From: a virus
Reading direction: 5' to 3' (one strand)
DNA length: 64,000 nt
UHGV virus genome: UHGV-1383976
Shown in pieces: positions 4,865 to 54,942 of the stretch. The notes under the pieces are model-generated. The model was not told the origin of the DNA. It did not search any database and worked only from the letters and a program-made list of their open reading frames with translations. Both the position numbers and the translations under genes were made by a program. Position 1 is the first letter of the stretch. Each line of letters begins with the position of its first letter.

Positions 4865-5281
4865 ATGGTAGATAGTTATAATATTCAATCTCAAACTGTT
4901 GATGTAAATGGCTTACTTACATTTCCTATCAATTCCATATTGACAGGCTGTACCGTTAGCCATACAGCAGGTAGCACAACATTCTCACTCAATAAGCCCG
5001 GACTTTATTTTGTATCATTCAATGCTGTCGGTACAATTTCAGGTGCTACTGCTGGTGCGATAACCGTTCAACTCCAGAATAATGGCACAGCAGTTCCGGG
5101 TGCGCTTAGCTCAGACACATCCGCATCAACAACTGACGTTCGTAATCTTTCCTTCACAAAAGTAATTCGAGTCAATCCATCTTGCTGTGCGGTCAATAAT
5201 CAAGCTAATCTGACATTTGTAAATGCAGGGCTTGGCGCGATTTACACCAATGCTAACGTGGTAATTACCAAGCTAGCGTAA
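4865..5281 (+). CDS. Hypothetical protein (possible virion protein)
   Basis: 138-aa ORF, Thr/Ser/Ala/Gly-rich and beta-rich. Confidence 0.45.
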   Translation: MVDSYNIQSQTVDVNGLLTFPINSILTGCTVSHTAGSTTFSLNKPGLYFVSFNAVGTISGATAGAITVQLQNNGTAVPGALSSDTSASTTDVRNLSFTKVIRVNPSCCAVNNQANLTFVNAGLGAIYTNANVVITKLA

Positions 5282-5290
5282 GGAGGCAAT

Positions 5291-5593
5291 ATGGTAAAAT
5301 ATAAAGCGCTTTATAAAGCTATGTATGATGACTTGAAAGATAGTGAAATGATGATTTGCTATGCTGATGAAATTCGTGAAAATAAAGAAGACGCGGCTTT
5401 GGCCGATGTTATAGCTAAGTATGCGCAATACCGTCTGAATCATTTTATGGAATTTCATAAGTTGTTTGAGAATGAAGCATCAAAAGAACCACAAGTCAAT
5501 GCCGAATCGGTAGCCTATTGTATGTGGGATACAACCCATGAAATGATGATGGAATGGTATGGTTCCATCAAACAAAAAATAGAAAAATTCTAA
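5291..5593 (+). CDS. Hypothetical protein
   Basis: 100-aa ORF with RBS AAGGAGG. A bidirectional terminator lies at its end. Confidence 0.5.
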   Translation: MVKYKALYKAMYDDLKDSEMMICYADEIRENKEDAALADVIAKYAQYRLNHFMEFHKLFENEASKEPQVNAESVAYCMWDTTHEMMMEWYGSIKQKIEKF

Positions 5594-7312: not shown

Positions 7313-7530
7313 TCAAGTCCCTCCCATATGGTGCTATATACCATTGTACAAGAAACAACTTCGCAACTGTCAATTATTTCGCCCTTAGACTTCTTATCTT
7401 TGTGAGTGTAGCCGCACTTGGCTATCTGATAACCTCTCTCGCGAGCTTCAGTGCGAAACTTTTCCATCAAATCCTTTGCTTCGTTTTCACTTTCGACTCT
7501 ATATTCCTTAGTTTCTTTGAGCAGTATCAT
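7309..7530 (-). CDS. Hypothetical small protein
   Basis: 73-aa ORF translationally coupled (ATGA overlap) with dut. Confidence 0.4.
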   Translation of the reverse strand: MILLKETKEYRVESENEAKDLMEKFRTEARERGYQIAKCGYTHKDKKSKGEIIDSCEVVSCTMVYSTIWEGLE

Positions 7531-7621
7531 TTTATTTCTCCTTTATCCAATACATATAGAAAGGACTTCCTTTCTTTTTATAATATAATTATACCACAAA
7601 AAGATAAGGAAGTCAAATTTT

Positions 7622-8908
7622 TCAATCTTTATTTTTCAAAACCAGATTGAGAATTATACCAGCCATAAGAGCAAGTGCAGTAGCAGAAATTGAGAAATCA
7701 GTTCCACCAATAGCAAGGCCGCTTATACCGAGAGAAAGAACCGCCGAAACAATTATCAGATTCTTTTGTCCATTCAGATCAACTTGTTGAAGCATCTTTA
7801 TACCACTACAAGCAATAAAACCATAGAGAACAATAGCTGCACCAGCAAAAACACAAGCTGGGATTGAACTGATAAAAGCTTGAACCGGAACGAAAAACCC
7901 CATAAGTATTAGAATAAGAGCGGCTGTCCCACTAACCTTAGCTGAAGCTACTTTACTAAAGCCCACACACGCGACGCCCTCTCCATAAGAGCAAGCGCCA
8001 AGTCCACCAAGTAAACCACTAACAGCATTTGCAAGTCCTTCACCAGCGAAGATGCGGTTAAGGCCGGGCTTCTGATATAGGTCAATACCAATTATGCCGC
8101 CAAGAGCAGCATGGTCGCTAAGGGCCTCCATCATTGCACTTATTGTATAAGCAATAAACAAAAATATCAAAGGAATAAGCTGTGGCAATTCAATGAATTT
8201 GTACCAATTGACATGAGAGATAGCGAGGTCAGGCAAAGCAAAAAGTCTCATATTTTCAAAAATACTAAAATCTACAACAGGAAAAATATTTGTAATTGTA
8301 AGCGCAACCGCATAAGTATAACCAACTAAAGTGCCAAGCAGAAACGGGAGAATCTTTATAATTCCTTTTGCATAATGTGAAAACAGTGCAATTGCTATCA
8401 TTGTGATGATAGCTATACTAACACCCCACATATTAGTTTCGCCATTTATCTGAACATAAGTCAAGATAAAAGGCATAAGATTAATACCTATAACAACCGT
8501 GACCGCGCCGATCAATGATTTGGGGAAAATTTTATATATATTTTCAACGGGAACACGACTAAAGATAAGACCAAAAATTGTATAAACAACCCAAATTACA
8601 AAACAACCAATAATTGCACCTTCATAACCACAAGAAGCAAGTGCAATTAGGATAGGAGCGACGAAAGCACCAGAATTCGAGATGAACATCGGAGACTGGC
8701 CTTTTGTTATAAGAATATAGGCCAAAGTACCGCAACCCGCGCCGACAAGTGCACCAGATATGGCAACGCCGCAAATATTGGCAATAAGCACTGTTGCCAC
8801 AAAAACTGATAACATCATCTGAATGGCAAACAGAATCAGCTTGCCAAAAGGAATTCTATCTCCAAGTGAATAAATCATTCGTGAGTCGCCTCCCAGTCTT
8901 GAAGCCAT
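7622..8908 (-). CDS. Nucleobase:cation symporter (NCS2 / xanthine-uracil permease family)
   Basis: 428 aa with about 12 predicted TM segments. N-terminal GKLILFAIQMMLSVFVATVLIA resembles the NCS2 signature region of uracil/xanthine permeases. Confidence 0.65.
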   Translation of the reverse strand: MASRLGGDSRMIYSLGDRIPFGKLILFAIQMMLSVFVATVLIANICGVAISGALVGAGCGTLAYILITKGQSPMFISNSGAFVAPILIALASCGYEGAIIGCFVIWVVYTIFGLIFSRVPVENIYKIFPKSLIGAVTVVIGINLMPFILTYVQINGETNMWGVSIAIITMIAIALFSHYAKGIIKILPFLLGTLVGYTYAVALTITNIFPVVDFSIFENMRLFALPDLAISHVNWYKFIELPQLIPLIFLFIAYTISAMMEALSDHAALGGIIGIDLYQKPGLNRIFAGEGLANAVSGLLGGLGACSYGEGVACVGFSKVASAKVSGTAALILILMGFFVPVQAFISSIPACVFAGAAIVLYGFIACSGIKMLQQVDLNGQKNLIIVSAVLSLGISGLAIGGTDFSISATALALMAGIILNLVLKNKD

Positions 8909-9966: not shown

Positions 9967-10544
9967 AATGTCTCCTTTCCATAATGTAGGGTTAAAGCGC
10001 CAAATGAATTACCTAATGCAGCAACTAAAATTTTTCGGAAGGAAATTGGTATAGAGCCTGCCGCTGAATAAAACATATTGGCAATGCAGTGATCAAAACC
10101 ACAATAAACAAATAAAAACACAGGGAGCATTATAGCAAGAAGGGACTTTGTTCGTTTGAATCCTTCAACTGCGCAATAGACACATACTCCGCACAAGTAG
10201 GAGCTAAAGAGTAAATTGGCATATGGCATTTCTGCTTTTGAAGAAGCAACTGAGTCGGCCAAAAATGGATTTACCCACCACACCAATAAGCCCAATAGCG
10301 CAGCACCAGCAAAATTTGCAATAAGCATTATACTTAAATCAATAAGATCTGCGCTATCACCTACATAAGCAATACGGCCAGTATAAAGTGGAAGGCTAAG
10401 TTCTAAAATTGAAACAAGCCCAAAGCTAAATAACAGTGCACCCAATATCTTATTTTGGCTAATGAGGTTGGCATATCCGCCAACCCCAATTAGCATACCT
10501 GCAAAGAAAGCAGGAATTATATTATAATTATCTTTTTTTATCAT
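9951..10544 (-). CDS. Small integral membrane protein, possible nucleoside/vitamin-type transporter
   Basis: 197 aa with 5-6 predicted TM helices. Its own consensus promoter lies at 10547-10582. Transporter family not assignable by eye. Confidence 0.45.
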   Translation of the reverse strand: MIKKDNYNIIPAFFAGMLIGVGGYANLISQNKILGALLFSFGLVSILELSLPLYTGRIAYVGDSADLIDLSIMLIANFAGAALLGLLVWWVNPFLADSVASSKAEMPYANLLFSSYLCGVCVYCAVEGFKRTKSLLAIMLPVFLFVYCGFDHCIANMFYSAAGSIPISFRKILVAALGNSFGALTLHYGKETLWTKI

Positions 10545-10546
10545 AT

Positions 10547-10582
10547 TTATATTATATCAAAATTTTATTGAAAAATCAAATT
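10547..10582 (-). promoter_or_regulatory. Consensus phage promoter (TTGATT-N17-TATAAT)
   Basis: Minus-strand reading AAATTTGATTTTT-N-GATATAATATAAATA. The -35 is at 10574-10579 and the -10 at 10551-10556, with a 17-nt spacer. Confidence 0.55.
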
Positions 10583-11145
10583 TCGAGTTCGCAAATGTGC
10601 GCTTTTTCCAAAGTTTGGTGAACATCTATAAGGCGCTGATTACGAGAGCCACGGAATGGCAAAGTTAAATCACGCTGCTCAAGAATAAAAGGACCATCTA
10701 CCACAACATCGCAAAGTTGGAGTGTTGTTGAAATGCGGCGAGGGGGATTGAAATCCTCCCAGTCCAAGTGGTAGCCAGTATAGAGCCAAATGTCCTTATC
10801 AGGAAATTTTTCTTTGATTTCCCTTAACAACTTATAGATAGTATTGTTGTTTTGTGGCTCAAGTGGATGACCGCCAGAAAGAGTAATGCCTTTTACCCAA
10901 GGTTTAGACAGGGCGTCAAACAATTCTTCTTTTGCGGCATCATCAAAAGGCTTACCTGCACAAAAGTCCCAAGTTTCAGGATTATGACATTCTTTACAAT
11001 GGAGGGAACATCCGGATACCCAAAGGACGACACGTACACCAAAGCCATTTGCGATGTCGCATTTTGTTATTTTGATATAATTCATTATGATTCTCCCAAA
11101 TGTAAGACGCGCTCTTTTATTTCTTGGGTACGGCCAAAATTCCAA
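10576..11145 (-). CDS. nrdG: Anaerobic ribonucleotide reductase activating protein (radical SAM)
   Basis: GCSLHCKEC is a Cx3Cx2C radical-SAM cluster motif. About 190 aa, located directly downstream of nrdD. Confidence 0.8.
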   Translation of the reverse strand: MEFWPYPRNKRARLTFGRIIMNYIKITKCDIANGFGVRVVLWVSGCSLHCKECHNPETWDFCAGKPFDDAAKEELFDALSKPWVKGITLSGGHPLEPQNNNTIYKLLREIKEKFPDKDIWLYTGYHLDWEDFNPPRRISTTLQLCDVVVDGPFILEQRDLTLPFRGSRNQRLIDVHQTLEKAHICELEI

Positions 11146-18571: not shown

Positions 18572-18599
18572 CTTATCACCCCTTTCCTTTATTTTCTAT

Positions 18600-18635
18600 A
18601 TATATTATATCAAAAATTAGCCTAAAAGTCAAACT
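18600..18635 (-). promoter_or_regulatory. Consensus phage promoter upstream of the polymerase gene
   Basis: Minus strand TTGACT (18627-18632 on +) - N17 - TATAAT (18604-18609), with extended GATATAATATATATA. Confidence 0.55.
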
Positions 18636-19717
18636 TAAAAGCTCCACTCCGCGTTTTCGACTTCAACATCTACGATTTGCAATTGGGGGGTGTAATTTCC
18701 TAACCATTCATTAACATTGGGTTTACCCACAATTGTTAAACACATTTCAGGCCATTTATGAAGCTTTTCAATCAAGTCTTTTGCACGGAACTTTATGTAG
18801 GTAATTCCATTTTTTTCAATTCGTATTGTATCTTGATTCTTGCCGATTATTTTTACATCATCGGGTTTTATATAGAGGTTTGTTATCGCTATAAGACTCT
18901 GAGGATTATTTTGACCCCAAACTCTTTCGTAGCGTGCCAAATCAAAAATAATGTTGCTTATATCACTATCACTTGCCTTGCGAACGAAATCGACGTCATA
19001 GTTATTATTACCAAAGTCATAAGATGCCAATTGGGTATTAGAAAGATTCAGTAGTTCATTGCGGCTGTTGGCTGGAATAGCAAACCCAGCAGCGTTAGCG
19101 TGCCCTTGCACATAGTCAAACAATGACGTATCTAACAAATAGTCTTTGAACGACGTGAGCGCACTCTGCGAAAGTCCTCTAATACTTCCCTTTATCATTC
19201 CATCTGAGCCTTCGCGTCCTATCATTGTTGGCTTATGGTATCGCGCGCTAAGTTGCGTGGCAATTAGACCATTCAGCTCAGGAGGAAAGTCATCATCGTC
19301 ATCAAGTTTAACAAACAAAATTTTATTTTCTAGCAAATCATACTTGTGTATCTTATACTCAAGTTGCTCGGTTGCTTTTTCTTTTGCCTTATCTTGATGC
19401 GACTTTGCATTTGTACATTCGCGCGTGCTTTCAATTGCGAGCTTTTCAAGTGTTCCTTTTGCCCCGCGCTTGCCACTTGGCACAAGTGTTTCACCCATAA
19501 CAACTGCACGATAAAGGCGCTCTTTTTCCTCTTGAGAACCTACACGAATCATTGCATTTATCAATGGTGTTATGTAAAATGCAACAGTTGTCGGATTGAT
19601 CTCACCGCCCATTGAGTAGGACTGTTTTTCAACAAGAGTTTTGAGAAAAAAGTTTTGTATGTTAGAACAACCACGCTGAACAATAAATTGATTTTCATAA
19701 GACAACATACTCATCAT
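18635..19717 (-). CDS. RecJ-like ssDNA exonuclease, C-terminal part (DHHA1 region)
   Basis: The motif VQGHANAAGFAI resembles the DHHA1 GGGH motif. Its N-terminus (MMSMLSYENQFIV) continues the RecJ motif IV region that ends the upstream DHH ORF. Confidence 0.6.
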   Translation of the reverse strand: MMSMLSYENQFIVQRGCSNIQNFFLKTLVEKQSYSMGGEINPTTVAFYITPLINAMIRVGSQEEKERLYRAVVMGETLVPSGKRGAKGTLEKLAIESTRECTNAKSHQDKAKEKATEQLEYKIHKYDLLENKILFVKLDDDDDFPPELNGLIATQLSARYHKPTMIGREGSDGMIKGSIRGLSQSALTSFKDYLLDTSLFDYVQGHANAAGFAIPANSRNELLNLSNTQLASYDFGNNNYDVDFVRKASDSDISNIIFDLARYERVWGQNNPQSLIAITNLYIKPDDVKIIGKNQDTIRIEKNGITYIKFRAKDLIEKLHKWPEMCLTIVGKPNVNEWLGNYTPQLQIVDVEVENAEWSF

Positions 19718-24511: not shown

Positions 24512-24532
24512 TTTCTCACTCCTTTCATATAT

Positions 24533-24568
24533 AAATATTATATCACAATTTTTCTAAAAAGTCAAATT
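24533..24568 (-). promoter_or_regulatory. Consensus phage promoter
   Basis: Minus strand AATTTGACTTTTT-N-GATATAATATTTATA. The -35 is at + 24560-24565 and the -10 at + 24537-24542, with a 17-nt spacer. Confidence 0.55.
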
Positions 24569-26971: not shown

Positions 26972-27025
26972 TTCAATATTCAATTTTAGAAAAGAATAAT
27001 TTCTTTCTTTCCTTATCTTGTATAT

Positions 27026-27061
27026 ATATATTATATCGCAGATTTTGAAAAAAGTCAAATT
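27026..27061 (-). promoter_or_regulatory. Consensus phage promoter (tandem with the previous one)
   Basis: Minus strand TTGACT (+ 27053-27058) - N17 - TATAAT (+ 27030-27035). Confidence 0.5.
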
Positions 27062-29427
27062 TTGACCAGACCAATTACTTCATTTTTACCAGACAACTTC
27101 AATGTCTTGACTCCTTGCGCTGTTCGACTCTGAAGCGGCAAATCATTTACTTTGATGCGAAGGCGCGCACTTGTCGATATAACAACCAGTTCGCGCTCAT
27201 TCTGTAGAGCAACAAAATCAACAATTCCTTCTGGCATTGCTTTCACGCCCTTTGTATAGCGACCCTGAACAGGTAGCTCGTCAACAGACAACCGCTTTGC
27301 CAATCCTTCTTTTGACACAACGACAATTTCTTTTTCCGATGTAATAGCACGGGCACTTGATACTTCATCGCCGAGACTTAGCTTGATGCCATGAACACCT
27401 TTTGTAGCACGTCCAATGGCATTTATCGAGTCAGTCTCAATTATGAGGAACTGGCCCTTCTTTGTGGAAAGTGCAAGATTTTCCTCGTTTATTAGCAATA
27501 CATTGACTAATTCATCACCAGTAGTAAACTCAATTGCTTTTATACCGCCAGAACGATTAGTATTATATTCTTTGAGTTCAGTTTTTTTGACAAAACCTTG
27601 CTTCGTGATAAACATAGCATGGCGCGCACTTGTGGTTTTGTTGTAAGATGTAAGTGTAAGAACCTTGTCATCACCCGCAAAATCGAGATAGGTTTTCTTT
27701 TCATTTTCAAAAGATGACAAAGGCCGTACATACATCTGCCCTTTTTGTGTAAAAAACAAGAGCACATCGCCTGTCATACAGGAAGTTGAATATGTGATAT
27801 ATTCGCCATCTGCCAATTTCATTTTATTGCCAACCGTATTACGGCTTTGGGAATAAAGAGAAGAAATCTCATTGACATAAATCTCATTCTGATTTGTCAG
27901 ACTTACCTGATATTTTTTTACTTCAACAGGTTCATCGTTTTCATCTGCTGACAAATTCAAAATCTGTGTGCGACGGTCATCTCCAAATTTCTCGGCAACT
28001 TCACGCCATCCCTTTTTGATTTCTTCTTTGAACAGTTCCTCATTATTGAGAGTTTTTTCAATAGACTCCGCTTTAGAAATCAAATCAGCCCTTTCGTTTT
28101 CCAGCTTTTGAACTTCTAAGTGTGCTAAACGGCTTAACTTCATATCTAATACAGCTTTGGCTTGTGCTTCATCGAGTAAAAAATTCTGTCGCAATGCAAC
28201 AGAGGCAGCGCTAGCTGACGTGGAACTGCGAATTGTTTGAACAATCTCCTCAATATGTGCCATACAAATCAGCAGACCATCAATAATGTGAATACGAGAT
28301 TTGATTTTATTAAGGTCAAATTCAAAAGCACGACGATACACAACGCGCTCATGGTCGATATGAGACTGAAGCATCTCCTTCCAACCAAATACACGAGGAA
28401 AACGGCCATTATCTAGCATTGTGAAGTTGATGCCATAATGGTACTGAAGAAACGTATTTTTGAACAGATACTTTAGTACTTTATCAGGATTTGCTTTCTT
28501 TGTTAAGTAAATTTTAATTAGCGGAGTAGAACCGGTAAGGTCATTAAATCTTTCGATGCCGGGGTTATCCTCTCCGTTCACAATTTCCTCAAGTTGGCCG
28601 CAGATTGTATTGGTGTAAACCCCATATGGAATTTCAGTTATAGTAAAACATTTTTCCTTAGAGTCATACTTAGCCACACTGCGCAACTTACAAGCAAATC
28701 CCTGACCATTCTTCATAGATTTCTTTACATCATCTTCGTTATAAAGAATAGCGCCAGTAGCAAAATCGGGGGCGCAATAGATTTCATTAAAATCGCAATC
28801 TGGATTGTCAATAAGATAAATAAGCGCATTGTTCAATTCACGCAGGTTATATTGAGGAATAGAGCAGGCCATACCCGTTGCAATACCACTACTACCATTT
28901 ACGATGTTGTAATACCCCTTAGTAGGAAGTACAGATGGATACAGCTCATTATCAGCATAATTATCACGCCAATCATCAATAGTATCTTTATCAATGTCAG
29001 CAAATAAATATGCAGCGAGCTTAGAGAGCCTTGTCTCCGTATAACGAGGAGCCGCCCAGTTGCCAGATGATAACAAAGTTCCGCCATTGCCTTTTACTTC
29101 TACAAGTGGATATCTCATAGCAAAAGCCTGACCAGCACGCATTATAATACCTTCACAAGAACTGTCACCGTGAATATAAAAATGTTTCATAGCATCACCA
29201 ATCGCGGCCATTGTTTTTTGAAAGGGCTTGGTTGCCACATATTTATATTTATCCATACAGTAAAAAATTTGACGCGCAGATGGTTTAAGTCCATCGCGCA
29301 CATCGACCAATGCTCGCGATTGAATAACTGCAGCTGCGTATTGCGCGAAACTTTGCTTTATTATGTCGGTCATATTATTGCTGTTCACTAAATATTTCCT
29401 CCAATCTATCTTCAATAATTTCTTCAT
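27055..29427 (-). CDS. Type II DNA topoisomerase, A-like (GyrA/ParC/T4 gp52-like) subunit
   Basis: 790 aa. DVRDGLKPSARQIFYCM resembles the GyrA N-terminal motif around the catalytic-Tyr region. Confidence 0.85.
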   Translation of the reverse strand: MKKLLKIDWRKYLVNSNNMTDIIKQSFAQYAAAVIQSRALVDVRDGLKPSARQIFYCMDKYKYVATKPFQKTMAAIGDAMKHFYIHGDSSCEGIIMRAGQAFAMRYPLVEVKGNGGTLLSSGNWAAPRYTETRLSKLAAYLFADIDKDTIDDWRDNYADNELYPSVLPTKGYYNIVNGSSGIATGMACSIPQYNLRELNNALIYLIDNPDCDFNEIYCAPDFATGAILYNEDDVKKSMKNGQGFACKLRSVAKYDSKEKCFTITEIPYGVYTNTICGQLEEIVNGEDNPGIERFNDLTGSTPLIKIYLTKKANPDKVLKYLFKNTFLQYHYGINFTMLDNGRFPRVFGWKEMLQSHIDHERVVYRRAFEFDLNKIKSRIHIIDGLLICMAHIEEIVQTIRSSTSASAASVALRQNFLLDEAQAKAVLDMKLSRLAHLEVQKLENERADLISKAESIEKTLNNEELFKEEIKKGWREVAEKFGDDRRTQILNLSADENDEPVEVKKYQVSLTNQNEIYVNEISSLYSQSRNTVGNKMKLADGEYITYSTSCMTGDVLLFFTQKGQMYVRPLSSFENEKKTYLDFAGDDKVLTLTSYNKTTSARHAMFITKQGFVKKTELKEYNTNRSGGIKAIEFTTGDELVNVLLINEENLALSTKKGQFLIIETDSINAIGRATKGVHGIKLSLGDEVSSARAITSEKEIVVVSKEGLAKRLSVDELPVQGRYTKGVKAMPEGIVDFVALQNERELVVISTSARLRIKVNDLPLQSRTAQGVKTLKLSGKNEVIGLVKI

Positions 29428-33255: not shown

Positions 33256-33319
33256 TTATAGCTATTTCATCTCCAATCTTATTTTTCTTTTTTAATTATA
33301 ACAAAAATTGAGGAAGAAA

Positions 33320-33547
33320 TCAAATTTCTTCCTCTAAATTCATTTTGTCGATTTGTCTTTTATCTCTTGGTGAATGGTCAACGGCTGCACCATAGGCCCC
33401 TTTATGTCGATATGATGCGTGACCATTTTTGGCTTTAGTTTTCTTTGATTTTCCTGCTGTTATGTATTTACTTATTTCACCGCTATTGGCAAAATAGCCG
33501 TCCTTTACATCGACAGCGCGCCCAGCATGATCAAGATGAGATAACAA
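33320..33547 (-). CDS. Hypothetical small basic protein
   Basis: 75-aa ORF. Confidence 0.3.
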   Translation of the reverse strand: MLSHLDHAGRAVDVKDGYFANSGEISKYITAGKSKKTKAKNGHASYRHKGAYGAAVDHSPRDKRQIDKMNLEEEI

Positions 33548-40929: not shown

Positions 40930-40966
40930 AAAATTTGATTTTTCAAAAAAATGATGATATAATAAA
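40930..40966 (+). promoter_or_regulatory. Consensus phage promoter
   Basis: AAATTTGATTTTT, TTGATT at 40935-40940, N17, TATAAT at 40958-40963. Confidence 0.55.
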
Positions 40967-40988
40967 TATATAAAATGAGAAAGGAGAT

Positions 40989-42811: not shown

Positions 42812-43369
42812 TTGAAAGGGGCGAGTGCTACGCGAATTGCAAAGAATTTAGATAACTATGACTATACAAATCGGCTCAAAACCCGCAATCTTGATAATAC
42901 TGATATGCTCGATTTCAACTGCGGTGGAGCCGCGCTAATGACGTTTGACGGATTTGTTCCTGACCATGAGCGTGATTCATATGAAGAAGGTATAGATGAA
43001 GATATCGAGGCCGGACTTGCGTCTTGGGAAATTATTGATAGGCTTCTTTGGCGTGATGTTGATGAGATGCTTCATCTATTTGCAGGACGTCTTCGATTGG
43101 CTGATGCGGGAGAACAACCACGAGAAAATGAACGTCTTATTGCGTATCGGGTAGCACTTTCTTATGAAAAAGATGGCGATACAGGCGCACCGTTTGATAC
43201 CGACTTTCATTTCAAATATATGGATAGTGATGGGCAGTGGTATGAGAAAAGAGGGTTTTTCAATCCTATTGAGAAGTGCGATCTTTCTGCCGATTCAATT
43301 TGGGAATGTGGGCCTTTTTGCCCGCCTTATACATCAGATATTGTGTTTATGATGCTTACGAAAATTTGA
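42812..43369 (+). CDS. Hypothetical protein (possible Cys-nucleophile hydrolase)
   Basis: 185 aa. NCGGAALMTF and a downstream His. Function not assignable. Confidence 0.4.
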   Translation: MKGASATRIAKNLDNYDYTNRLKTRNLDNTDMLDFNCGGAALMTFDGFVPDHERDSYEEGIDEDIEAGLASWEIIDRLLWRDVDEMLHLFAGRLRLADAGEQPRENERLIAYRVALSYEKDGDTGAPFDTDFHFKYMDSDGQWYEKRGFFNPIEKCDLSADSIWECGPFCPPYTSDIVFMMLTKI

Positions 43370-43394
43370 TTTTCTTTCAGATTTTTTATATAAT
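43366..43394 (+). promoter_or_regulatory. Consensus phage promoter
   Basis: TTGATT at 43366-43371, N17, TATAAT at 43389-43394. Followed by the duplicated leader ATATATATAGAAAGTTGAGAGAGA. Confidence 0.55.
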
Positions 43395-43427
43395 ATATAT
43401 AGAAAGTTGAGAGAGAGGAGCTTGAAA

Positions 43428-43721: not shown

Positions 43722-43999
43722 AAACTTGGTTTATGTATCGAGAGAATCCAGACGGGAAATTTACAATAGTTCCTATTTATAAAAACTTTGGTGAAGATTG
43801 GAAAATAATGGGATCTTGGGCGGTGCTTCCCGCACGGCTGTTTGGATTGAGTTGGGCCGACTATTTACGTTATTGTAGGCAGTGTGGCGCCGATGTGCGA
43901 GGTAAGACGCATCAGTATCCCATTATTGCGTGGAATGAAAAGAATAATGAATTTTTAAATGAATTGAATAAACGCGCGAATCAGTTAATTAAAATTTGA
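43700..43999 (+). CDS. Hypothetical protein
   Basis: 99-aa ORF that overlaps the previous gene. Confidence 0.4.
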   Translation: MEGDFDMKTWFMYRENPDGKFTIVPIYKNFGEDWKIMGSWAVLPARLFGLSWADYLRYCRQCGADVRGKTHQYPIIAWNEKNNEFLNELNKRANQLIKI

Positions 44000-44023
44000 T
44001 TTTTCTAAAAAATTTGTATATAA
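43995..44023 (+). promoter_or_regulatory. Consensus phage promoter driving the tRNA island
   Basis: TTGATT at 43995-44000, N17, TATAAT at 44018-44023. Confidence 0.55.
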
Positions 44024-44044
44024 TATATATACAAAATAAGAAAT

Positions 44045-44130
44045 GCGGGTGTGTCGGAATGGGTAGACGATATGGACTTAAAATCCATTGGCGGGATGCT
44101 GTACGGGTTCGAGTCCCGTCACCCGTACCA
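44045..44130 (+). tRNA. tRNA-Leu (anticodon TAA), type II
   Basis: Cloverleaf by eye. Anticodon stem atgga/tccat with loop cttaaaa, a long variable arm, T-loop gggttcgagtccc and encoded CCA. Confidence 0.75.
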
Positions 44131-47144: not shown

Positions 47145-47232
47145 GCCCCATCTTCAGTTCTATAGCTGGTGAAGATGGATAGGCGATGAAGTATAGCAAT
47201 AATATGGCATGAGAACTATGATAGTGTTTCAT

Positions 47233-47322
47233 GAGAGCGTAACTCAGTCGGTAGAGTTTTATAGCGTGAAGGGATATGCTATTGAATGCCCTTAGTCGCC
47301 AGTTCGAATCTGGCCGCTCTCA
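47233..47322 (+). tRNA. Aberrant tRNA-like gene (perfect acceptor, D and T arms; about 17 extra nt in the anticodon/variable region; no encoded CCA)
   Basis: Acceptor gagagcg/cgctctc, D-arm actcagtcggtagagt, T-arm gccagttcgaatctggc. The central 40 nt do not give a canonical 5-7-5 anticodon arm. A 5-bp atagc/gctat helix encloses a 12-nt loop. Confidence 0.4.
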
Positions 47323-47350
47323 TTAAAAATATATATGAAGAGGAATAGTT

Positions 47351-47610: not shown

Positions 47611-48153
47611 GGCTCAGTAGCTCAGAGGCAGAGCGTGCGGCTGTTTACTTGACCTTATCATTCTTTATGAAAAAGATAATGAATAGTAAGCAAAAAGGAA
47701 ACATTACAGAACTTGAAACAATGTTAGCATTTCTAAAACTTGGTTATAATGTTTTAACTCCATATGGAGATTGTGAGAGATATGACTTTGTTGTAGATGT
47801 TAATGGAAAATTTATTCGAGTTCAAGCTAAAACATCAAATACTGAAGATGATGGTGCATCATTTAAATTTTCTTGTAGAAGTTGCAATAGAAAAGATGGT
47901 AAAATTGTGCATCATATATATTTAAGCGAAGAAATTGATTACTTCGTAACTACTTTTAATGGAAAATGTTATTTAATTCCAGTTGAAGAGTGCGGAGCTG
48001 ATAAAAGACTTCGTATTCTTCCAACAAAAAATGGACAGGTAAGAGGTATTACTTGGGCAAAAGATTATGAATTGGAGGAAGTAGTAAAGAATTGGTAAGC
48101 TGATGTGTAAGCAACCGCAAGGTCGAGATATCGTAATTCTCCTGAGCCTCCAT
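47611..48153 (+). tRNA. tRNA (Asn GTT or Asp GTC) interrupted in the anticodon loop by an insertion of about 467 nt that carries a PD-(D/E)XK endonuclease ORF
   Basis: The 5' half is 47611-47645: ggctcag-ta-gctc-agaggca-gagc-g-tgcgg-ctgtt. The 3' half is 48113-48153: aa-ccgca-aggtc-gagat-atcgtaa-ttctc-ctgagcc-t-cca. The acceptor pairs 7/7, the D-stem 4/4 and the anticodon stem tgcgg/ccgca 5/5, with CCA encoded. Confidence 0.55.
47649..48098 (+). CDS. Small PD-(D/E)XK nuclease-like protein inside the interrupted tRNA (homing endonuclease candidate)
   Basis: ERYDFVVDVNGKFIRVQAKT is a D...(E/Q)xK signature. Paralog of 49599..49958. The start may be the internal Met at 47667. Confidence 0.5.
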   Translation: MTLSFFMKKIMNSKQKGNITELETMLAFLKLGYNVLTPYGDCERYDFVVDVNGKFIRVQAKTSNTEDDGASFKFSCRSCNRKDGKIVHHIYLSEEIDYFVTTFNGKCYLIPVEECGADKRLRILPTKNGQVRGITWAKDYELEEVVKNW

Positions 48154-48158
48154 ATTAT

Positions 48159-48234
48159 GCGCCATTAGCTCAGTTGGTAGAGCATGGCACTTTTAATGCT
48201 GGGGTCTGCGGTTCAAGTCCGCAATGGCGCACCA
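48159..48234 (+). tRNA. tRNA-Lys (TTT)
   Basis: Perfect acceptor gcgccat/atggcgc, anticodon loop ctTTTaa, T-loop ttcaagt and CCA. Confidence 0.8.
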
Positions 48235-48254
48235 TAAATTTTGGAGGAAGTAAA

Positions 48255-48515
48255 ATGAAGCTGACAGAGAAAGGGACAATTGTATTTGCCGCTGCGTTAG
48301 AGCATTGTCCCAATGAACCTTTTACAGCGGCCAGTTTATCAACAAAGTGTGGCCTTCCTATTTCTGCAGCTACACTCAATGGTATCACCAATCAGGGACT
48401 TATGACTCGACTTGGCGGTTCGCCCGTTAAGTTTGAGTTAGTTTCTAACGCGAAAGACTTGTATAACAAGGCGCGCGAAGGCAAATCGGCGAATGAAAAT
48501 TTAAATAAAGCGTAG
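48255..48515 (+). CDS. Small putative DNA-binding protein (MKLTEK paralog 2)
   Basis: The listed ORF 48174.. begins inside tRNA-Lys. The real start is the ATG at 48255 with RBS GGAGGAAG. Paralog of 26606..26860. Confidence 0.45.
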   Translation: MKLTEKGTIVFAAALEHCPNEPFTAASLSTKCGLPISAATLNGITNQGLMTRLGGSPVKFELVSNAKDLYNKAREGKSANENLNKA

Positions 48516-48581: not shown

Positions 48582-49358
48582 TTGCGTGGTAAAAAGGTTT
48601 TATGTAATTGTAATGATGGTTTGACAAGTGAGTTCTTAAATTATTTTGTCAATAATTTTGATTGTCTTGAACTTGATGAACTTGTTTGTTTGACTTATAA
48701 TAAAGATGGAAAGGCATATAAGTATACCAAGCGTCCTAAAGTTGACCTTATGGTTGAACCACTCATCGGTTCTGGTGCATTTGATTCACAGGAAGGCCGA
48801 GATGCTCTTGCCGCTTGTGATATTGTTATAACAAATCCTCCCTTTAGTCAATTTCGAGATTTTGTCAATTTGATTTTGTCTTACAAAAAAGATTTTTTGA
48901 TAATTGGCAGTAAAAATGCTATTACCTACAAAGAATTTTTTCCACTTTTAATGAGTGGTAAAGTTCATATTGGCAATTTCAATGTTTCTACTTTTAAACA
49001 GCCAGATGGTACTGATAAAAAATTTGGTAATATCGGTTGGTTTACGACTCTTTCTGTTGTAAAAGCGGCACAACCAATTCCTTTAACAGCAACCTATGAT
49101 CCGCAAAATTATCCTACTTATGATAACTTCCGTGCAATTGAAGTAAGTCGCACAGCTAATATTCCTAAGGACTATGATGGCGTAATGGGGGTTCCTATTT
49201 CATTTCTGGACAAATTTTGTCCTACTCAATTTAAAATTGTTGGATGGAGTCGTCATAATGACGAAGGAATGGATGGCGGATACTGGACGGGTGGTTGTGC
49301 TGATGCTACTATAAATGGTAAGCAAGTTTATCGCAGAATTTTGATTCAGAAAATTTGA
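48582..49358 (+). CDS. Second N6-adenine DNA methyltransferase-like protein (NPPF motif)
   Basis: CDIVITNPPFSQFRDF. 258 aa. Paralogous catalytic motif to the CDS at 46410..46961. Confidence 0.5.
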   Translation: MRGKKVLCNCNDGLTSEFLNYFVNNFDCLELDELVCLTYNKDGKAYKYTKRPKVDLMVEPLIGSGAFDSQEGRDALAACDIVITNPPFSQFRDFVNLILSYKKDFLIIGSKNAITYKEFFPLLMSGKVHIGNFNVSTFKQPDGTDKKFGNIGWFTTLSVVKAAQPIPLTATYDPQNYPTYDNFRAIEVSRTANIPKDYDGVMGVPISFLDKFCPTQFKIVGWSRHNDEGMDGGYWTGGCADATINGKQVYRRILIQKI

Positions 49359-49383
49359 TTTTTATTAAAATTTTCGATATAAT
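49355..49383 (+). promoter_or_regulatory. Consensus phage promoter with duplicated leader
   Basis: TTGATT at 49355-49360, N17, TATAAT at 49378-49383, then ATATATATAGAAAGTTGAGAGAGA, identical to the leader at 43389-43412. Confidence 0.55.
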
Positions 49384-49598
49384 ATATATAGAAAGTTGAG
49401 AGAGAAACTTCCAGAGGTTGCGAATTAGCTATTCAATACAAAATCTCTCAAAATGATAAGGTTTTCGGTGTTTTACTTATCGGTTTTCTATGCAAAATGG
49501 TTCTAACAAGCCAGCGTGCGCGCGAGTAAAAGTTGTTAATAAGCGGTTGGCATACGTGATAAGCCGTTGCCCCAGCGAGAAGATTTAATAAATCTTCT

Positions 49599-49958
49599 TT
49601 GTTGGTGGTGTTTAATAAAAATGCGTCAGTAGCAACCCAGTGGTATGATTTGATTATAGAAAAAGATGATAAATTTGAAACAGTACAATGTAAGTGTACT
49701 GGTTCTCAGAACAACGTCATTAGTCTAAAGTCTTGTGGCGGTACAAAAGGTGAAGCTTATGACAATGTTCTTAATCATTCTGGGCTTGATAAATTATTTT
49801 GCGTGGATATAAATGGTAATATGTACGTGATCCCGATGTCAGAGGTTGTGGCATCTGGAAATACTAAGCAAATTACTTTACGTACTGAACCCACAGCAAA
49901 TAATCAAGGTTTTCAAACTCATAAATTTCGAGTTCAATTCTCGTTTCAAGCGTCGTAA
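49599..49958 (+). CDS. PD-(D/E)XK nuclease-like paralog (TTG start, long 5' leader)
   Basis: Shares YDxxxxxxxKFxxVQxK...SxKSC and a C-terminal (M/C)Y(L/V)IP(V/M)xE with the CDS at 47649..48098. No clear RBS. Confidence 0.35.
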   Translation: MLVVFNKNASVATQWYDLIIEKDDKFETVQCKCTGSQNNVISLKSCGGTKGEAYDNVLNHSGLDKLFCVDINGNMYVIPMSEVVASGNTKQITLRTEPTANNQGFQTHKFRVQFSFQAS

Positions 49959-50254: not shown

Positions 50255-50287
50255 ATAATTTCATTTTTCAAATTTCCTTTCTTAAAA

Positions 50288-50317
50288 TTTGACTTTTTCA
50301 AAAAATCTTGATATAAT
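50288..50317 (+). promoter_or_regulatory. Consensus phage promoter in front of the GC-rich ORF-free region
   Basis: AAAATTTGACTTTTT, TTGACT at 50288-50293, N18, TATAAT at 50312-50317. Confidence 0.55.
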
Positions 50318-50324
50318 ATATACA

Positions 50325-51060
50325 TAAGATAAAGAAAAGAAAAAGTCAAAAGGAGGACAATGCTAGTGCCACCTACACGTGGTGTCCTCTGTTTTCGCTA
50401 AGAGCGCTGGCATATATCCAATTAAATAATACTAACTCAGTGAAGACGGAATTCGATGTTCCGGCTGAGAAATTCCAGCTAGCACAGCAGAAACGAAACA
50501 AGGATACTTGTGGATACTGGACTGAGAGGCCATCGAGAGATGAGCCGAAGTAGAGCGGTCGCTCAAGTGGGAAGAAGAGCAGGAATTGTGCTGAGTGAAT
50601 CGCAAGCAAACGCAGCCGTGGAGTGGCGAGCGCAATAGACAGCTTGGTGAATAGCCAAGCCGAACCCAAGTTAGGTCTTAGTTGGTGCCTGTGGCAATCC
50701 TTGGGAAAACCAATAAGCTCGTTCCGTTGAGACGACAGGGAATGTGAAATCTGTCTTTGACACTCTACAGCATCCGAGTAGCGGAACACAACGGGGACTT
50801 ATAGAAAAGATGGTCAGTAATAATAGAAATTGCTATTTTATCTTTCTGAACATCCCGTGAAAGGTAGAGGTAATCAACCCTCTGGCGGATTAGGCGACAT
50901 TAGACACTTGGGCTATCCAAGAGTAACAAGTCAATGTTGTTGCTGGGGTAAGAAGTGTATGGGCGACGGCCTGTATGCTCAGACTTATCTCCCGCGTGGC
51001 AGAATATGCTTGAAGGTTTATCGAGGTAGGGCGAAGGCCCAGTAATATTTAGTTGGATTT
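50325..51060 (+). ncRNA. Candidate large structured non-coding RNA (about 0.7 kb, GC-rich, no credible ORF)
   Basis: Local GC is well above the roughly 36% background. Only short mutually overlapping ORFs occur on both strands, none with an RBS. The region is preceded by a consensus promoter, contains many stable local hairpins and is flanked by tRNA-Trp and tRNA-Met. Confidence 0.4.
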
Positions 51061-51361: not shown

Positions 51362-51775
51362 ATGAAGTATTATAGTGATGTTCTTCATACGCTGTTTGAT
51401 ACTCAGGATGCGCTTGAGGAAGCCGAAGCGAAGAAAACCGCGGCAGATGCTGAGAAAGTACATGCAAAAGAAACGGCTAGAAAACGTAGAGAAGAAGATA
51501 AAGAACGTTTCCTTGAGTTGAGAAAGAAGTTCAATAAGATCAGCACTGAGTATGACAAGACATCTAAAGAGTATATGGACTATGCTGATAAGATGATGCA
51601 GGAGTATTCATTAGATGCTGTGCTGGATTGGCTTTCTGATGCTTTTCTTTATGATTGTGCCACAGCTAAGACGAAAGCAGATGCATCATCTACCACAACT
51701 GCTACCACGAAAACTGCGCGGGAGCCTGAAAACTTGGGAGAAATTCTTGCCCGTATTTTTGAGGATATGCGCTGA
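51362..51775 (+). CDS. Hypothetical coiled-coil protein
   Basis: 137 aa, Lys/Glu/Ala-rich. RBS AAAGGAAG. Confidence 0.45.
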   Translation: MKYYSDVLHTLFDTQDALEEAEAKKTAADAEKVHAKETARKRREEDKERFLELRKKFNKISTEYDKTSKEYMDYADKMMQEYSLDAVLDWLSDAFLYDCATAKTKADASSTTTATTKTAREPENLGEILARIFEDMR

Positions 51776-51779
51776 GAAT

Positions 51780-52340
51780 TTTGAATAAATTGGCGCGATT
51801 GATTATCAAATCGTCCCACGGAGTTGAAGCTAAAACGTTAGCGGTGAATATGGCCATTCCCGCAAGCTCGGCGGTTTGTTAGGCAACCGCGCGGATGTAA
51901 ATTATTGATAGGAAACTTTGGTTTAATTTACTCACTGAAGTTCTCCAAAAGTCGAACTAGAGCCTAAACTGAGTTCGCAGTGCTGAGGCCGGCATACGCT
52001 CGGAGAGGATGCGTTATTGAGCTAATTGGATTAGTGTCAATGTGAGGCAACGGTGGCCAACTCTTAGAGAGCCACGCGACAGAGTTATGCTAAAAGGCAA
52101 TGCCCAGTATCGGTGCCACTAGGGTTGATAGACAAGTAGTAAAAGTCAGGTGAAGACAATACCGGCTGACATAATTGGGACGTAGTCATAGGCGTAGGCC
52201 GTGCCAAAACTAAAAATCAAAGTGTGCGGCACACGAAACCCAAGTCAGATGCGGGCGATTGAAACGGCGCCCTCAACCCATATAAGGTTTTACAAGAGAT
52301 TTTCCTTGTGTTAGACTAAAAAATCTCTTTTTTGTATAAA
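51780..52340 (+). ncRNA. Second candidate large structured non-coding RNA (about 0.55 kb, GC-rich, completely free of ORFs of 60 aa or more)
   Basis: No ORF is listed on either strand across 51776-52525. GC is elevated. The region ends in an intrinsic terminator (52296-52340) just before tRNA-Gln. Confidence 0.4.
52296..52340 (+). terminator. Rho-independent terminator at the end of the ORF-free region
   Basis: Hairpin aagagatttt...aaaatctctt followed by TTTTTTG. Confidence 0.55.
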
Positions 52341-52343
52341 TTT

Positions 52344-52418
52344 AGAGGTATAGTGTAATTGGCAACACATCGGCCTTTGACGCCGTATTTATAGGTTCGA
52401 GTCCTGTTACCTCTGCCA
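52344..52418 (+). tRNA. tRNA-Gln (TTG)
   Basis: Acceptor agaggta/tacctct, anticodon loop ctTTGac, T-arm ataggttcgagtcctgt and CCA. Confidence 0.65.
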
Positions 52419-52525
52419 ACAGTTCCACATTAGAAAAACCTAATGTGGACTTTTTTATATATATCAGCTACAAAAAATCTACTTAGAAATGCGGGCAACC
52501 GCAAAACACATCAAAGGAGGAGCCT

Positions 52526-53160: not shown

Positions 53161-53481
53161 ATGGATAAATATACTGGCTATTATGAGTGGCATCCATCAG
53201 AACAAGGACTTGAGGATTTTTATTCTGGCCTTTTTACACCTGCAGGGATGGGCTTGGTTGAAAACCAGTATTTGATTATCTATGACTCCGAAGATAAGGT
53301 TATAGATAAATATTTTTGTAAGAACAATGAATTTGAAAAGGTTCATTATATGGCGCTTCAAAGCGATTACTGTGGGGTTATCAAACCACGCAATGTATAT
53401 CAGGAATTGGCTATTCATTCCCTTATGGATAGACGTGTTCCCGTAAAAGTTTTGGGTGGCGTCTTTGGCTCGGGTAAATAA
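53161..53481 (+). CDS. PhoH-like ATPase, exon 1 (ends inside the Walker A motif)
   Basis: Ends ...AIHSLMDRRVPVKVLGGVFGSGK followed by a stop. GxxGSGK is a P-loop truncated just before the expected T/S. The remainder of PhoH is encoded by 54409..54942. Confidence 0.6.
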   Translation: MDKYTGYYEWHPSEQGLEDFYSGLFTPAGMGLVENQYLIIYDSEDKVIDKYFCKNNEFEKVHYMALQSDYCGVIKPRNVYQELAIHSLMDRRVPVKVLGGVFGSGK

Positions 53482-54411
53482 CTTGCCCCTTCTTAGGGCG
53501 ACCTAAGAATGAAAATCGCGTGAATTGCTGGAAGCCTAAGCCGCAAGGTATGGTAATCAGCAGCCAAGCCGTTTTAGCAACGGAAGGTTCAACGACTATC
53601 CCGGCAGGGAGTAGGGAGCAATCCCGAAGCGCGCGACAACTTTTGTTTTGTTTTTATTTTAATAAAGGAGGTGAGGTTATAAATAAGTGGACAGATGAAC
53701 AAAAAGCAGAAATTATTGATGATTATACCAAAAAAGGTATGACTTTGGCAGAGATTGGAAAAAAATTTCATTCTAAAGGAGATACAATTAGTAAATATCT
53801 AAAGTCTTGGGATATTCCCATCAATCGTAGAAAGAAAAATCGGCTTATGAATGAAAAGTTTTTTTCTATAATTGACTCAGCTGAAAAGAGTTATTTTCTG
53901 GGCTTGTTATTCGCTGATGGTTCAGTTGTTTTAAATAGCGAGCGGGCGCCATATGTTTCTTTAGAATTAGTAGAAAAGGACAAAGAAATATTAGAAATTT
54001 TCCGTTCATTATTAAATTGTCAAAATGACTTATACTACAATAAGCGAGATAATCGGAAGAATGGAACATATACTTTTGGAGTAAGAAGTCAATTACTAGC
54101 TGATGATTTAGCTAAATTTAATATCATTCCAAATAAAACTTATGAAACAACCCAAGTAATTTTCCCAGAAAATTTTCTTATTGATTTTCTAAGAGGGTAT
54201 ATTGATGGCGATGGCTCTATTTATCAAAATGTTTATAAGGCCGTTTGGAATGGACAAGATGCTAAACGAATTATAAACATTCTCTATTTAAAGAACGATG
54301 GCATTGCGCTCTCTCGAAAACGAGAACGAGCTAAGTTAGCTCAACAAAACAAAAGTTGATGATATAGTCTAATCCCTTTTTAAAAATATCGGGAAACCGA
54401 GGGTATAAATG
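53476..54411 (+). mobile_element. Group I intron (IA-like) in the phoH-like gene, carrying a LAGLIDADG homing endonuclease ORF
   Basis: Q-like AATCAGCAGCC (53555-53565), R-like GGTTCAACGACTATCCC (53586-53602) and S-like TGATGATATAGTCTAATCC (54357-54376). R/S give a GACTAT/ATAGTC P7 pairing. Proposed splice sites are after U53475 and after G54411, giving an in-frame junction GSG/KDLL. Confidence 0.6.
53520..54359 (+). CDS. LAGLIDADG homing endonuclease (double-motif)
   Basis: Two LAGLIDADG motifs, LGLLFADGSV and LRGYIDGDGSI. The true start is uncertain because the upstream part of the listed ORF overlaps conserved intron elements. The likely start is near 53680, after AAAGGAGG. Confidence 0.75.
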   Translation: MNCWKPKPQGMVISSQAVLATEGSTTIPAGSREQSRSARQLLFCFYFNKGGEVINKWTDEQKAEIIDDYTKKGMTLAEIGKKFHSKGDTISKYLKSWDIPINRRKKNRLMNEKFFSIIDSAEKSYFLGLLFADGSVVLNSERAPYVSLELVEKDKEILEIFRSLLNCQNDLYYNKRDNRKNGTYTFGVRSQLLADDLAKFNIIPNKTYETTQVIFPENFLIDFLRGYIDGDGSIYQNVYKAVWNGQDAKRIINILYLKNDGIALSRKRERAKLAQQNKS

Positions 54412-54942
54412 AAGGATCTTCTAATGAGCGGGGCTTGTTTTAGCTTTATCGAAAAAGGTATTTTTGAAAAACTTGTTTATATACGCCCCAATATCACGCT
54501 TGAAGGAGTGCCTGATATTGGCTACCTCAAAGGCGGAATGGACGAAAAGCTTGAATGGACTTTAGCTCCATTATGGGATAAGTTCGGTGGCCGCGAAGCT
54601 ACTCAAAATCTTGTTGCTTCTGGCAAGATTGAGCTTGTAGCCTTACCTTTTATCAAAGGTCGCAGTTTTGAAAACAGCATTATTTATGTCAGTGAAGGCC
54701 AGAACATTACTCGTAAAGTCGCTGGCAATATTATTAGTCGCGCTGGTGAGGGCACTGAAATTTGGATAAATGGCGACTATCACAGTCAGACCGATCGCAG
54801 AATGTTTGAGGTTGATAATGGTATGCGTGCGATGGAGGAAACCCTGAAAGGCAATGCGCTCTATGAAACTATTTATCTTCCTATTACAGAGCGTTCTGCT
54901 GTAGCTCAACTTGCTGGAATTGTTTGTAACACTGAAAATTGA
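54409..54942 (+). CDS. PhoH-like ATPase, exon 2
   Basis: IELVALPFIKGRSFENSIIYVSEGQNIT and GEGTEIWINGDYHSQTD resemble PhoH Walker B and downstream motifs. Confidence 0.6.
   Translation: MKDLLMSGACFSFIEKGIFEKLVYIRPNITLEGVPDIGYLKGGMDEKLEWTLAPLWDKFGGREATQNLVASGKIELVALPFIKGRSFENSIIYVSEGQNITRKVAGNIISRAGEGTEIWINGDYHSQTDRRMFEVDNGMRAMEETLKGNALYETIYLPITERSAVAQLAGIVCNTEN

Follow-up and report, generated by a model that had tools for sequence, protein, structure and literature searches.

A composite, conserved RNA locus with a widespread cloverleaf-like module in the tRNA island of a large phage genome

The stretch of DNA analysed here, hereafter the window, comprises 64,000 nucleotides (nt) of UHGV virus genome UHGV-1383976. 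It represents a large phage genome with an island of 12 transfer RNA (tRNA) genes at 44-52.4 kb and with gyrase, PhoH and ClpP-like genes, and its close relatives are human-gut assemblies of 75-133 kb. Open reading frames (ORFs) of at least 60 amino acids (aa) cover 93.8% of the window. The longest stretch in which the ORF list places no ORF of at least 60 codons on either strand is 51776-52525 (750 nt; the runner-up measures 281 nt), bounded by the stop codon of a 137-aa ORF (51775) and by the ClpP-like gene (52526). We conclude that this gene-free stretch is a noncoding, conserved and folded RNA locus on the + strand, and that it consists of two parts. The 5' part (51791-52117, about 330 nt, or about the 5' two thirds of the locus) comprises a 5' hairpin and three domains, and is seen solely in a single clade of human-gut phages with genomes of ~130 kb (34 sequence variants). 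The 3' third is a cloverleaf-like module, the 5' neighbour of which, domain 3, ends at 52117; this module belongs to a family that is widespread in phage tRNA clusters and matches nothing in Rfam 15. The features of the locus are as follows.

51362-51775, + strand: upstream ORF of 137 aa, fast-evolving and Lys/Glu-rich, with its stop codon adjoining the RNA region
51791-51818, + strand: variable two-tier 5' hairpin directly 3' of the stop codon; its sequence differs by lineage, with pairing kept
51821-51904, + strand: domain 1, predicted by RNAalifold (closing helix 51821-51825/51865-51869; hairpins 51841-51863 and 51871-51890)
51911-51978, + strand: domain 2 (hairpins 51911-51946 and 51951-51978)
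51979-52117, + strand: domain 3 (long-range helix 51979-51986/52110-52117; P5, 52010-52049; P6, 52051-52078; a small hairpin)
52122-52280, + strand: domain 4, the cloverleaf-like four-way junction, 159 nt (models R2 and R3)
52294-52335, + strand: AU-rich hairpin and U-tract (10 perfect base pairs [bp]; arms 52294-52303 and 52320-52329, with 16 nt between)
52344-52418, + strand: tRNA-Gln (UUG) with encoded CCA (ARAGORN; Rfam tRNA model, 63.4 bits)
52424-52455, + strand: intrinsic terminator-like hairpin of 10 bp with a 6-nt loop and T-run (terminator scan; inverted repeat)

The original prediction for this region, made from the sequence alone, described about 750 nt without any ORF of at least 60 codons and with elevated guanine-plus-cytosine (GC) content. 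Both statements hold. Positions 51776-52525 are open in no frame on either strand, and the longest ORFs entering them (57, 56 and 51 aa) all run in from the upstream gene. The GC content of the stretch is 44.7% (48.3% in its core) versus 38.6% for the window, a level reached in just 41 of 635 segments of equal length. The upstream 137-aa ORF has sub-threshold weak Pfam matches at most and varies much more than the RNA core does; relatives carry an ORF of 96-147 aa at its position. Some gut phages recode stop codons, and a conserved stretch in a densely coding phage could conceal a recoded or frameshifted gene, a possibility that the original prediction had raised, or a DNA element such as an origin or packaging site. 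No such gene was found. Each of the six frames holds 7-16 stops with all three stop kinds present, so that reassignment of a single stop creates no gene, and the indels among relatives (7, 10, 2 and 1 nt) have lengths that three does not divide; a recoded or frameshifted ORF was rejected on these grounds. A repeat scan of the region detected no direct repeats or iterons, and iterons or an origin were likewise rejected. Given also the strand-specific G-U pairing and the compensatory changes described below, we give a hidden gene or DNA element next to no credence.

Relatives of the locus were collected through contigs that encode variants of the ClpP-like protein, which yielded 46 loci and 34 distinct sequences that are 82-99% identical. 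The element lies at a fixed distance from clpP in 46 of the 46 related loci with enough flank. In one relative (L316; contigs and loci are designated by L numbers), a GIY-YIG endonuclease ORF is inserted between tRNA-Gln and clpP (L316:2114-2848), and with this insertion the distance from the RNA element to clpP downstream grows to 1116 nt, compared to 181-185 nt without it. Across 30 variants, 26% of the core columns are variable, as are 17% of the ROOL columns and 46%, 63% and 37% of third codon positions in clpP, phoH and the gene for a 563-aa protein, respectively. Within the clade, only seven of the 112 columns of the module core vary, and a 27-nt run at 51844-51870 is invariant.

The structure of the whole region was built by domain-wise RNAalifold and counted on an alignment of 30 sequences. 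The consensus contains 166 pairs, and 98.8% of its alignment cells are canonical. Eighteen pairs are changed on both sides, compared to 4.8 +/- 1.5 in shuffles (0 of 500 reach 18) and 1-8 in slid controls. Three variants that were fetched after the structure had been fixed also fit it; the changed pairs are still canonical at 20 of 26 positions in L338 and 10 of 12 in L339, versus roughly 23-47% in slid controls. The consensus fold is more stable on the + strand (-256 kcal/mol) than on the - strand (-217 kcal/mol); G-U makes up 13.9% of paired cells, and when the structure is applied to the - strand just 85.6% of cells pair. The compensatory pairs and the strand-specific G-U pairing thus bear out a structured noncoding RNA locus on the + strand. 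An all-against-all listing of column covariation was swamped by lineage effects.

Within the 5' part, compensatory changes preserve the helices. In the 5' hairpin (helices 1-2), 97.5-98.3% of cells pair, and two-sided changes are seen at four of 10 pairs. The domain 1 hairpin at 51841-51863 is invariant, and its loop, AUGGCC, holds the palindrome GGCC; in helix 6 of the same domain two pairs are changed on both sides, e.g., A-U to G-C. Helices 8 and 9 of domain 2 pair in 97% of cells, with one two-sided change and many exchanges among G-U, A-U and G-C; the window and L338 share one version of the domain 2 stem and the remaining lineages have another. In domain 3, the closing pair is G-C in 19, A-U in 13, G-U in one and A-C in one of the 34 sequences. 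P5 has six pairs changed on both sides and carries three unrelated tip sequences across the lineages; three of four tip variants tested fold alike. P6 contains two compensatory pairs. Two lineages have lost a small hairpin through a clean deletion. The covariance model of domain 3 (R1) matches this phage clade alone, and no other module-bearing locus has domain 3, which indicates that domains 1-3 are specific to the window's clade.

The module that follows has the layout of a four-way junction, all on the + strand.

52122-52128/52273-52279, + strand: 7-bp closing ("acceptor-like") stem, GGGUUGA/UCAACCC in the window
52131-52147, + strand: after a UA linker, a 3-bp stem with an 11-nt loop
52149-52163, + strand: short arm with loop AAGACAA
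52166-52248, + strand: long variable arm, followed by the junction AUGC
52253-52272, + strand: 5-bp stem with loop AUUGAAACGG

In the window, the module ends with one unpaired A after the closing stem, and an encoded CCA is absent. The same plan is found throughout the family. The closing stem is 7 bp long, free in sequence and always paired; the linker is UA or UG; the 3-bp stem carries an 11-nt loop with the consensus ACAAGnAUUAAAAGU; and the short arm carries AAGAcAAUA. The variable arm ranges from 20 to 157 nt, and on the 3' side the junction AUGC leads into a covarying 5-bp stem with loop AUUGAAACUG and one unpaired base. The conserved motifs of the family are ACAAGnAUUAAAAGU, AAGAnAAUA, AUGC and GAUUGAAACUG. 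A loop-loop contact is predicted to join CAA of the D-like loop to UUG of the last loop.

Members of this family outside the clade were found with R2, a covariance model of domain 4. When 90 ROOL loci were searched by nhmmer and with R1, R2 and the family model R3, the single match was in another ROOL phage, L200, where R2 gave a weak full-length match; the L200 module immediately follows a small ORF and precedes a tRNA, as in the window. The motif common to the window and L200 (ACAAGnAnUAAAA...AAGAnAAUA) retrieved further phage contigs, and R2 matches at least 17 contigs from the last motif scan with 23-72 bits and E-values to about 1e-14, which are rough due to a shortened calibration. Further R2 matches were obtained in L346 (55.9 bits) and L347 (28.7 bits). 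In all, at least 19 phage contigs other than the window carry a relative of the module, for the most part within a tRNA array or next to one. R3 scores 124.3 bits in the window and 93 bits in L200; as the family was seeded from the window, membership of the window is by construction, and the independent evidence consists of the at least 19 other contigs. In earlier motif scans of viral, metagenome and genome collections, only the close clade and chance matches to coding sequences were recovered. The motif GACAAGTAG used for the metagenome and genome scans is not invariant (L305 has AAGGAG), and those scans therefore say little on absence from these collections.

In the 24-sequence alignment of the family, 94.2% of cells pair, whereas shuffles reach 71.8% and slid controls about 35%. 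Two-sided changes affect 35 of 47 pairs, with a covariation score of 0.431 compared to 0.143 in shuffles, and single pairs show up to five standard pair types. The placement of the module is similarly consistent. In L412 it lies 6 nt from a tRNA on each side, all on the same strand; in L377 it stands between a transfer-messenger RNA (tmRNA) gene and a tRNA gene on the same strand and starts at the tmRNA 3' end; in L431 it begins 2 nt 3' of a tRNA on the same strand; and in the window it lies 63 nt 5' of tRNA-Gln, again on the same strand. Phage tmRNA genes were noted in two module-bearing tRNA arrays (L377:2019-2334 and L451:6001-6346). We conclude that the element is composite, with a clade-specific 5' part joined to a widely distributed 3' module that stands alone elsewhere. 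The module defines a new structured RNA family of 100-230 nt, a tractable size, in many phage lineages, with nearly every stem covarying, and its model could be used to annotate a recurrent "gap" in phage tRNA arrays.

Database searches place neither part in a described family. The original prediction had proposed an Rfam comparison; against Rfam 15, at gathering score and at E<=10, just tRNA-Gln is matched in 51700-52450, and the RNA region of the divergent variant L338 likewise matches no family. At gathering score, no Rfam family was found at the homologous positions of 13 other loci scanned. A blastn search against GenBank phages and plasmids returned tRNA-Gln alone or nothing, and tblastn with the neighbouring 563-aa protein recovered no isolated relative. 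The literature searches returned no description of the module family, although the unnamed candidate RNAs of PMC10690425, which measure 29-151 nt, may include it.

Another large RNA lies in the same tRNA island. Positions 50412-51059 (+ strand) are a full-length ROOL RNA (RF03087, 271.8 bits in Rfam), 0.7 kb upstream of the RNA region. This agrees with the original prediction that the island carries a second large noncoding element, the first (given there as 50325-51060) being a plain ROOL. The suggestion that the two regions are halves or paralogs did not survive: their local alignment scores 20, versus 20.9 +/- 2.3 for shuffles. R1, R2 and R3 give no match at 50412-51059 or in 88-89 other ROOL loci. 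Identity or paralogy with ROOL was rejected, as the RNA region has no Rfam match to it (cut-off 99.1 bits), shows no similarity above shuffles, and is represented by models that miss the window's ROOL. Pairing between ROOL and the RNA region was also considered; the longest complementary words are two 9-mers, with ~1.3 expected by chance, and one of them is not conserved. An unrestricted RNAduplex run was uninformative.

ROOL and GOLLD are phage tRNA-island RNAs that form striking RNA-only assemblies. By analogy, the main rival to a divided locus treats the region as one noncoding RNA unit of about 500 nt, in which the module is the conserved core and domains 1-3 are lineage-specific, and which acts as a scaffold or in an assembly. 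Positions 51821-52280 are conserved and structured in 34 of 34 variants; domain 3 ends at 52117 and the module starts at 52122 with no spacer; a hairpin and U-tract come only 3' of the module; and a ROOL lies 0.7 kb away in the same island. The invariant palindromic GGCC loop of domain 1 could also mediate self-association. GOLLD offers a precedent for the layout, as its conservation is described as universal in the 3' region and lower in the 5' region (PMC12286853). Against a single unit, the module stands alone in at least three other phages, 0-6 nt from tRNAs or tmRNA, and can therefore function without domains 1-3; domain 3 is present in none of the other module loci. The region also does not exceed shuffles in folding energy, unlike ROOL, and it matches no Rfam family, any GOLLD model there included, at E<=10. 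We regard a single ~500-nt unit as a serious competitor that is nonetheless rather unlikely.

With regard to transcription, the original prediction had proposed a discrete unit of about 550 nt that ends in a clean terminator. A hairpin of 10 bp and a T-run do exist before tRNA-Gln. The stem has just two G-C pairs, it pairs in 94.9% of cells in relatives with some mismatches, and a promoter-like site (TTTACA-17-TAGACT, 52289-52317) overlaps it. The hairpin is absent from the terminator-scan list because its stem is AU-rich and its loop long. Its role may be that of a weak terminator or of a processing hairpin, and the description as a clean terminator goes too far. The discrete unit finds no support either: the promoter scan lists none ahead of the region, and the hairpin at its end is weak and overlapped by the promoter-like site. 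A convincing terminator (52424-52449 and T-run) sits 3' of tRNA-Gln, and the hairpin at 52424-52455 is likely the end of the transcription unit. The best promoter of the region is a strong sigma-70-like site at 50289-50317 (TTGACT-17-TATAAT with TG), which precedes ROOL.

The topology of the module fits that of class II tRNAs, with its 7-bp stem, 2-nt linker, 3-bp stem with 11-nt loop, long variable arm and last stem of 5 bp. When R2 was run with filters off on the T4 tRNA region, its best matches were the class II tRNA-Leu and tRNA-Ser (only 16.2 and 12.3 bits), which it aligns arm for arm as acceptor, D, anticodon, variable and T arms. From this topology and the tRNA-array context, with spacing like that of tRNAs, we consider the module to be tRNA-like, and it is plausibly tRNA-derived. 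It differs from tRNAs in that tRNA finders miss it and in that its own invariant loop motifs replace the tRNA hallmarks. ARAGORN makes no tRNA call in 51776-52343, and the Rfam tRNA model finds none there at E<=10. The "anticodon" stem is just ~2 bp in most family members, and the loop at this position is 7 nt in the window's clade. CCA follows none of the 24 aligned module sequences, and the window's tRNA-Gln does encode it.

These features bear on a simpler proposal, namely that the module is an unusual decoding class II tRNA with anticodon GAC or GAU that gene finders overlook. The cloverleaf, the 7-bp acceptor-like stem, the 7-nt loop at the anticodon position in the clade and the location in tRNA arrays would all fit. 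Opposed to it are the failure of the ARAGORN, Rfam tRNA and tRNA-Sec models to detect the module, an A in place of U33, the mostly ~2-bp anticodon stem, the lack of GG, a last loop of AUUGAAACUG and the lack of CCA in all aligned members. A decoding role is accordingly very improbable.

Our preferred explanation is that this composite + strand noncoding locus is expressed and processed together with the tRNAs, the cloverleaf acting as a tRNA mimic. Transcription would come from an upstream promoter and would include the 137-aa ORF and perhaps ROOL and two preceding tRNAs. The cloverleaf would be recognised as a pre-tRNA and excised by tRNA-processing enzymes, with ribonuclease P (RNase P) predicted to cut between 52121 and 52122. 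The same cut could give the 3' end of a separate structured RNA of ~330 nt (domains 1-3). Once released, the ~160-nt module, devoid of the features that mark a decoding tRNA, would serve as a tRNA mimic, and its invariant loops (ACAAGnAUUAAAAGU, AAGAcAAUA, AUGC and GAUUGAAACUG) might bind a host or phage factor that interacts with tRNA. The four invariant loop and junction motifs point to a specific partner. Candidate jobs for such a mimic include a decoy or inhibitor for tRNA-targeting defence, e.g., an anticodon nuclease, or a hijacker of a tRNA-binding enzyme or the ribosome, each of which we mention as a possibility. We put the chances of this explanation, in its general form, at about even. 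Its stronger form, in which the module is a new class of phage tRNA mimic with a dedicated job and RNase P matures a new ~330-nt RNA, is doubtful. Should the module prove to be a tRNA mimic, it would be relevant to phage manipulation or protection of the tRNA pool; as an RNase P substrate, it would also offer a phage route to the 3' end of another structured RNA.

Several observations weigh against this explanation. The window's module has an A at the U33 position, a D-like loop (AAGUAGUAAAA) without GG, a last loop (AUUGAAACGG) without T-psi-C and no CCA; given a module without tRNA hallmarks, recognition by RNase P is an assumption. The tRNA resemblance draws on topology and on weak model matches (the 16.2 and 12.3 bits cited above). 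No promoter directly upstream of the RNA region was found by a consensus scan or among copies of the phage's repeated promoter element. Judged by minimum free energy, the single sequence folds no more stably than its shuffles, with z = -0.32 for the region and +0.35 for the core, compared to -3.98 for ROOL; this speaks against a highly stable, ornate RNA. Compensatory changes in the 5' part come mostly from few lineages (the window, L305, L338 and L339) and thus represent few independent events. The spacer 3' of tRNA-Gln has 23% variable columns, about as conserved as the RNA core. Lastly, the 24-sequence family alignment was fitted to the model and therefore favours structure.

A further reading takes the region for a leader or spacer that acts in cis on the tRNA operon and has a decayed class II tRNA gene (a tRNA pseudogene) within it, with a function limited to transcript processing or stability. 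The region is situated between an ORF and a tRNA, its own promoter was not found, its tRNA topology comes without hallmarks and its folding energy is unremarkable. A decaying sequence is difficult to reconcile with four near-invariant loop and junction motifs and covarying stems over at least 19 contigs from many metagenomes, with a module core that varies at 6% of columns versus 37-63% at synonymous sites, or with helices of domains 1-3 that are kept by compensatory changes. We hold a leader or pseudogene to be improbable.

Additional features were observed around ROOL and the promoters. In the window, tRNA-Met starts at 51060, directly after ROOL, and the ROOL RNAs of other phages also abut or overlap a tRNA. 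Between the promoter and ROOL (50341-50400) lie an AAGGAGG ribosome-binding site, an ATG at 50361 and an ORF of ~13 codons; this ORF overlaps a terminator-like hairpin (50366-50385 and T-run) in an attenuator-like arrangement. An element of ~50 nt is repeated at at least 10 sites in the window (about 50283-50336, 49350-49394, 43361-43405, 43990-44046, 40930-40987, 33274-33331, 27009-27063, 24523-24568, 18587-18636, 10544-10583 and 2882-2935) and has three copies in the unrelated-looking ROOL phage L200, one of which reads ttgattttcttttaaatatatagtataat and is closely followed by a ribosome-binding site and a start codon. The element probably represents a family of phage-specific promoters.

Elsewhere in the window, a group I intron (53466-53741, 66.7 bits) with a LAGLIDADG-like ORF (53520-54359) interrupts phoH (53161-54942). 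Relatives (L307, L309, L312, L315, L338 and others) show phoH as an intact gene for 281 aa, split with a gap without a LAGLIDADG ORF, or split with one. PD-(D/E)XK endonuclease ORFs are located inside the tRNA island at 47649-48095 and 49599-49955; since some relatives have such an ORF called in this neighbourhood and others do not, these ORFs look like mobile insertions similar to homing endonucleases. An EcoRI-like adenine methylase ORF encodes 258 aa in the window (48582-49358) and 367-373 aa in relatives. Its N-terminal part may survive as a separate ORF of 113 aa (48174-48515, overlapping tRNA-Lys), split off by a frameshift, an insertion or an assembly error. ARAGORN also calls a 92-nt "tRNA-Phe" at 47232-47323 without confirmation by Rfam, and L001:2008-2093 gives a borderline Rfam tRNA-Sec match (47.5 bits versus a 47-bit cut-off).

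Other ROOL phages contain ORF-poor sequence of their own. In L200, the stretches 8495-8880 (- strand) and 7226-7950 (- strand) flank the module, and Rfam gave no match in them at gathering score, only weak sub-threshold ones. One of these stretches contains GGGGAGGAAAGU, the same letters with which CR-I of E. coli RNase P begins, together with an AAUAUGG-bearing hairpin that resembles domain 1 of the window. For the RNA region of the window, RNase P RNA was rejected as an identity: there is no Rfam match, a local alignment to E. coli M1 RNA scores 41 versus 32.9 +/- 5.2 for shuffles (22 of 300 reach 41), and its short CR-I- and CR-V-like words are separated by 11 nt and do not enclose an S-domain. 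Upstream of ROOL in L190, 738 nt at 4597-5334 (- strand) contain short ORFs (longest 104 aa), fold with z = -4.88 versus shuffles and include T-arm-like sequences that the Rfam tRNA model does not call. Type II hammerhead ribozymes (49-62 bits) occur in the related contigs L239 (3872-3941), L243 (3931-4000) and L265 (3992-4060 and 4763-4831), a few kb from ROOL.

Among known systems, ROOL resembles the locus as a large structured phage RNA in tRNA islands with a tRNA directly after it (PMC12286853). It differs in folding far better than its shuffles (z = -3.98), which the RNA region does not. The likeness to GOLLD is one of organisation only, as the RNA region also combines a lineage-specific 5' part with a widely conserved 3' module near tRNAs. 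GOLLD exceeds 800 nt, compared to about 500 nt here, and the conserved part here is small and occurs alone in other phages. GOLLD was rejected as an identity, since it gives no Rfam match at E<=10, a value scaled by 4227 families such that very weak resemblance could escape. The T4 rnaC and rnaD RNAs (species 1 and 2) are likewise small stable RNAs beside phage tRNA genes (NC_000866 annotation). Homology with them was rejected, as neither R2 with filters off nor R3 matches at L466:1909-2172.

Another possible parallel lies in tRNA-like elements that serve in RNA processing. In MALAT1, the tRNA-like mascRNA element is a processing signal, and the RNase P cut at it makes the 3' end of the upstream RNA. 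By analogy, a cut at the 5' side of the module would form the 3' end of the structured RNA upstream. If both the mimic and its maturation by RNase P are true, the locus would be a bacterial-virus counterpart of the MALAT1-mascRNA arrangement, and would bring together, with ROOL, three unrelated structured RNAs in one tRNA island.

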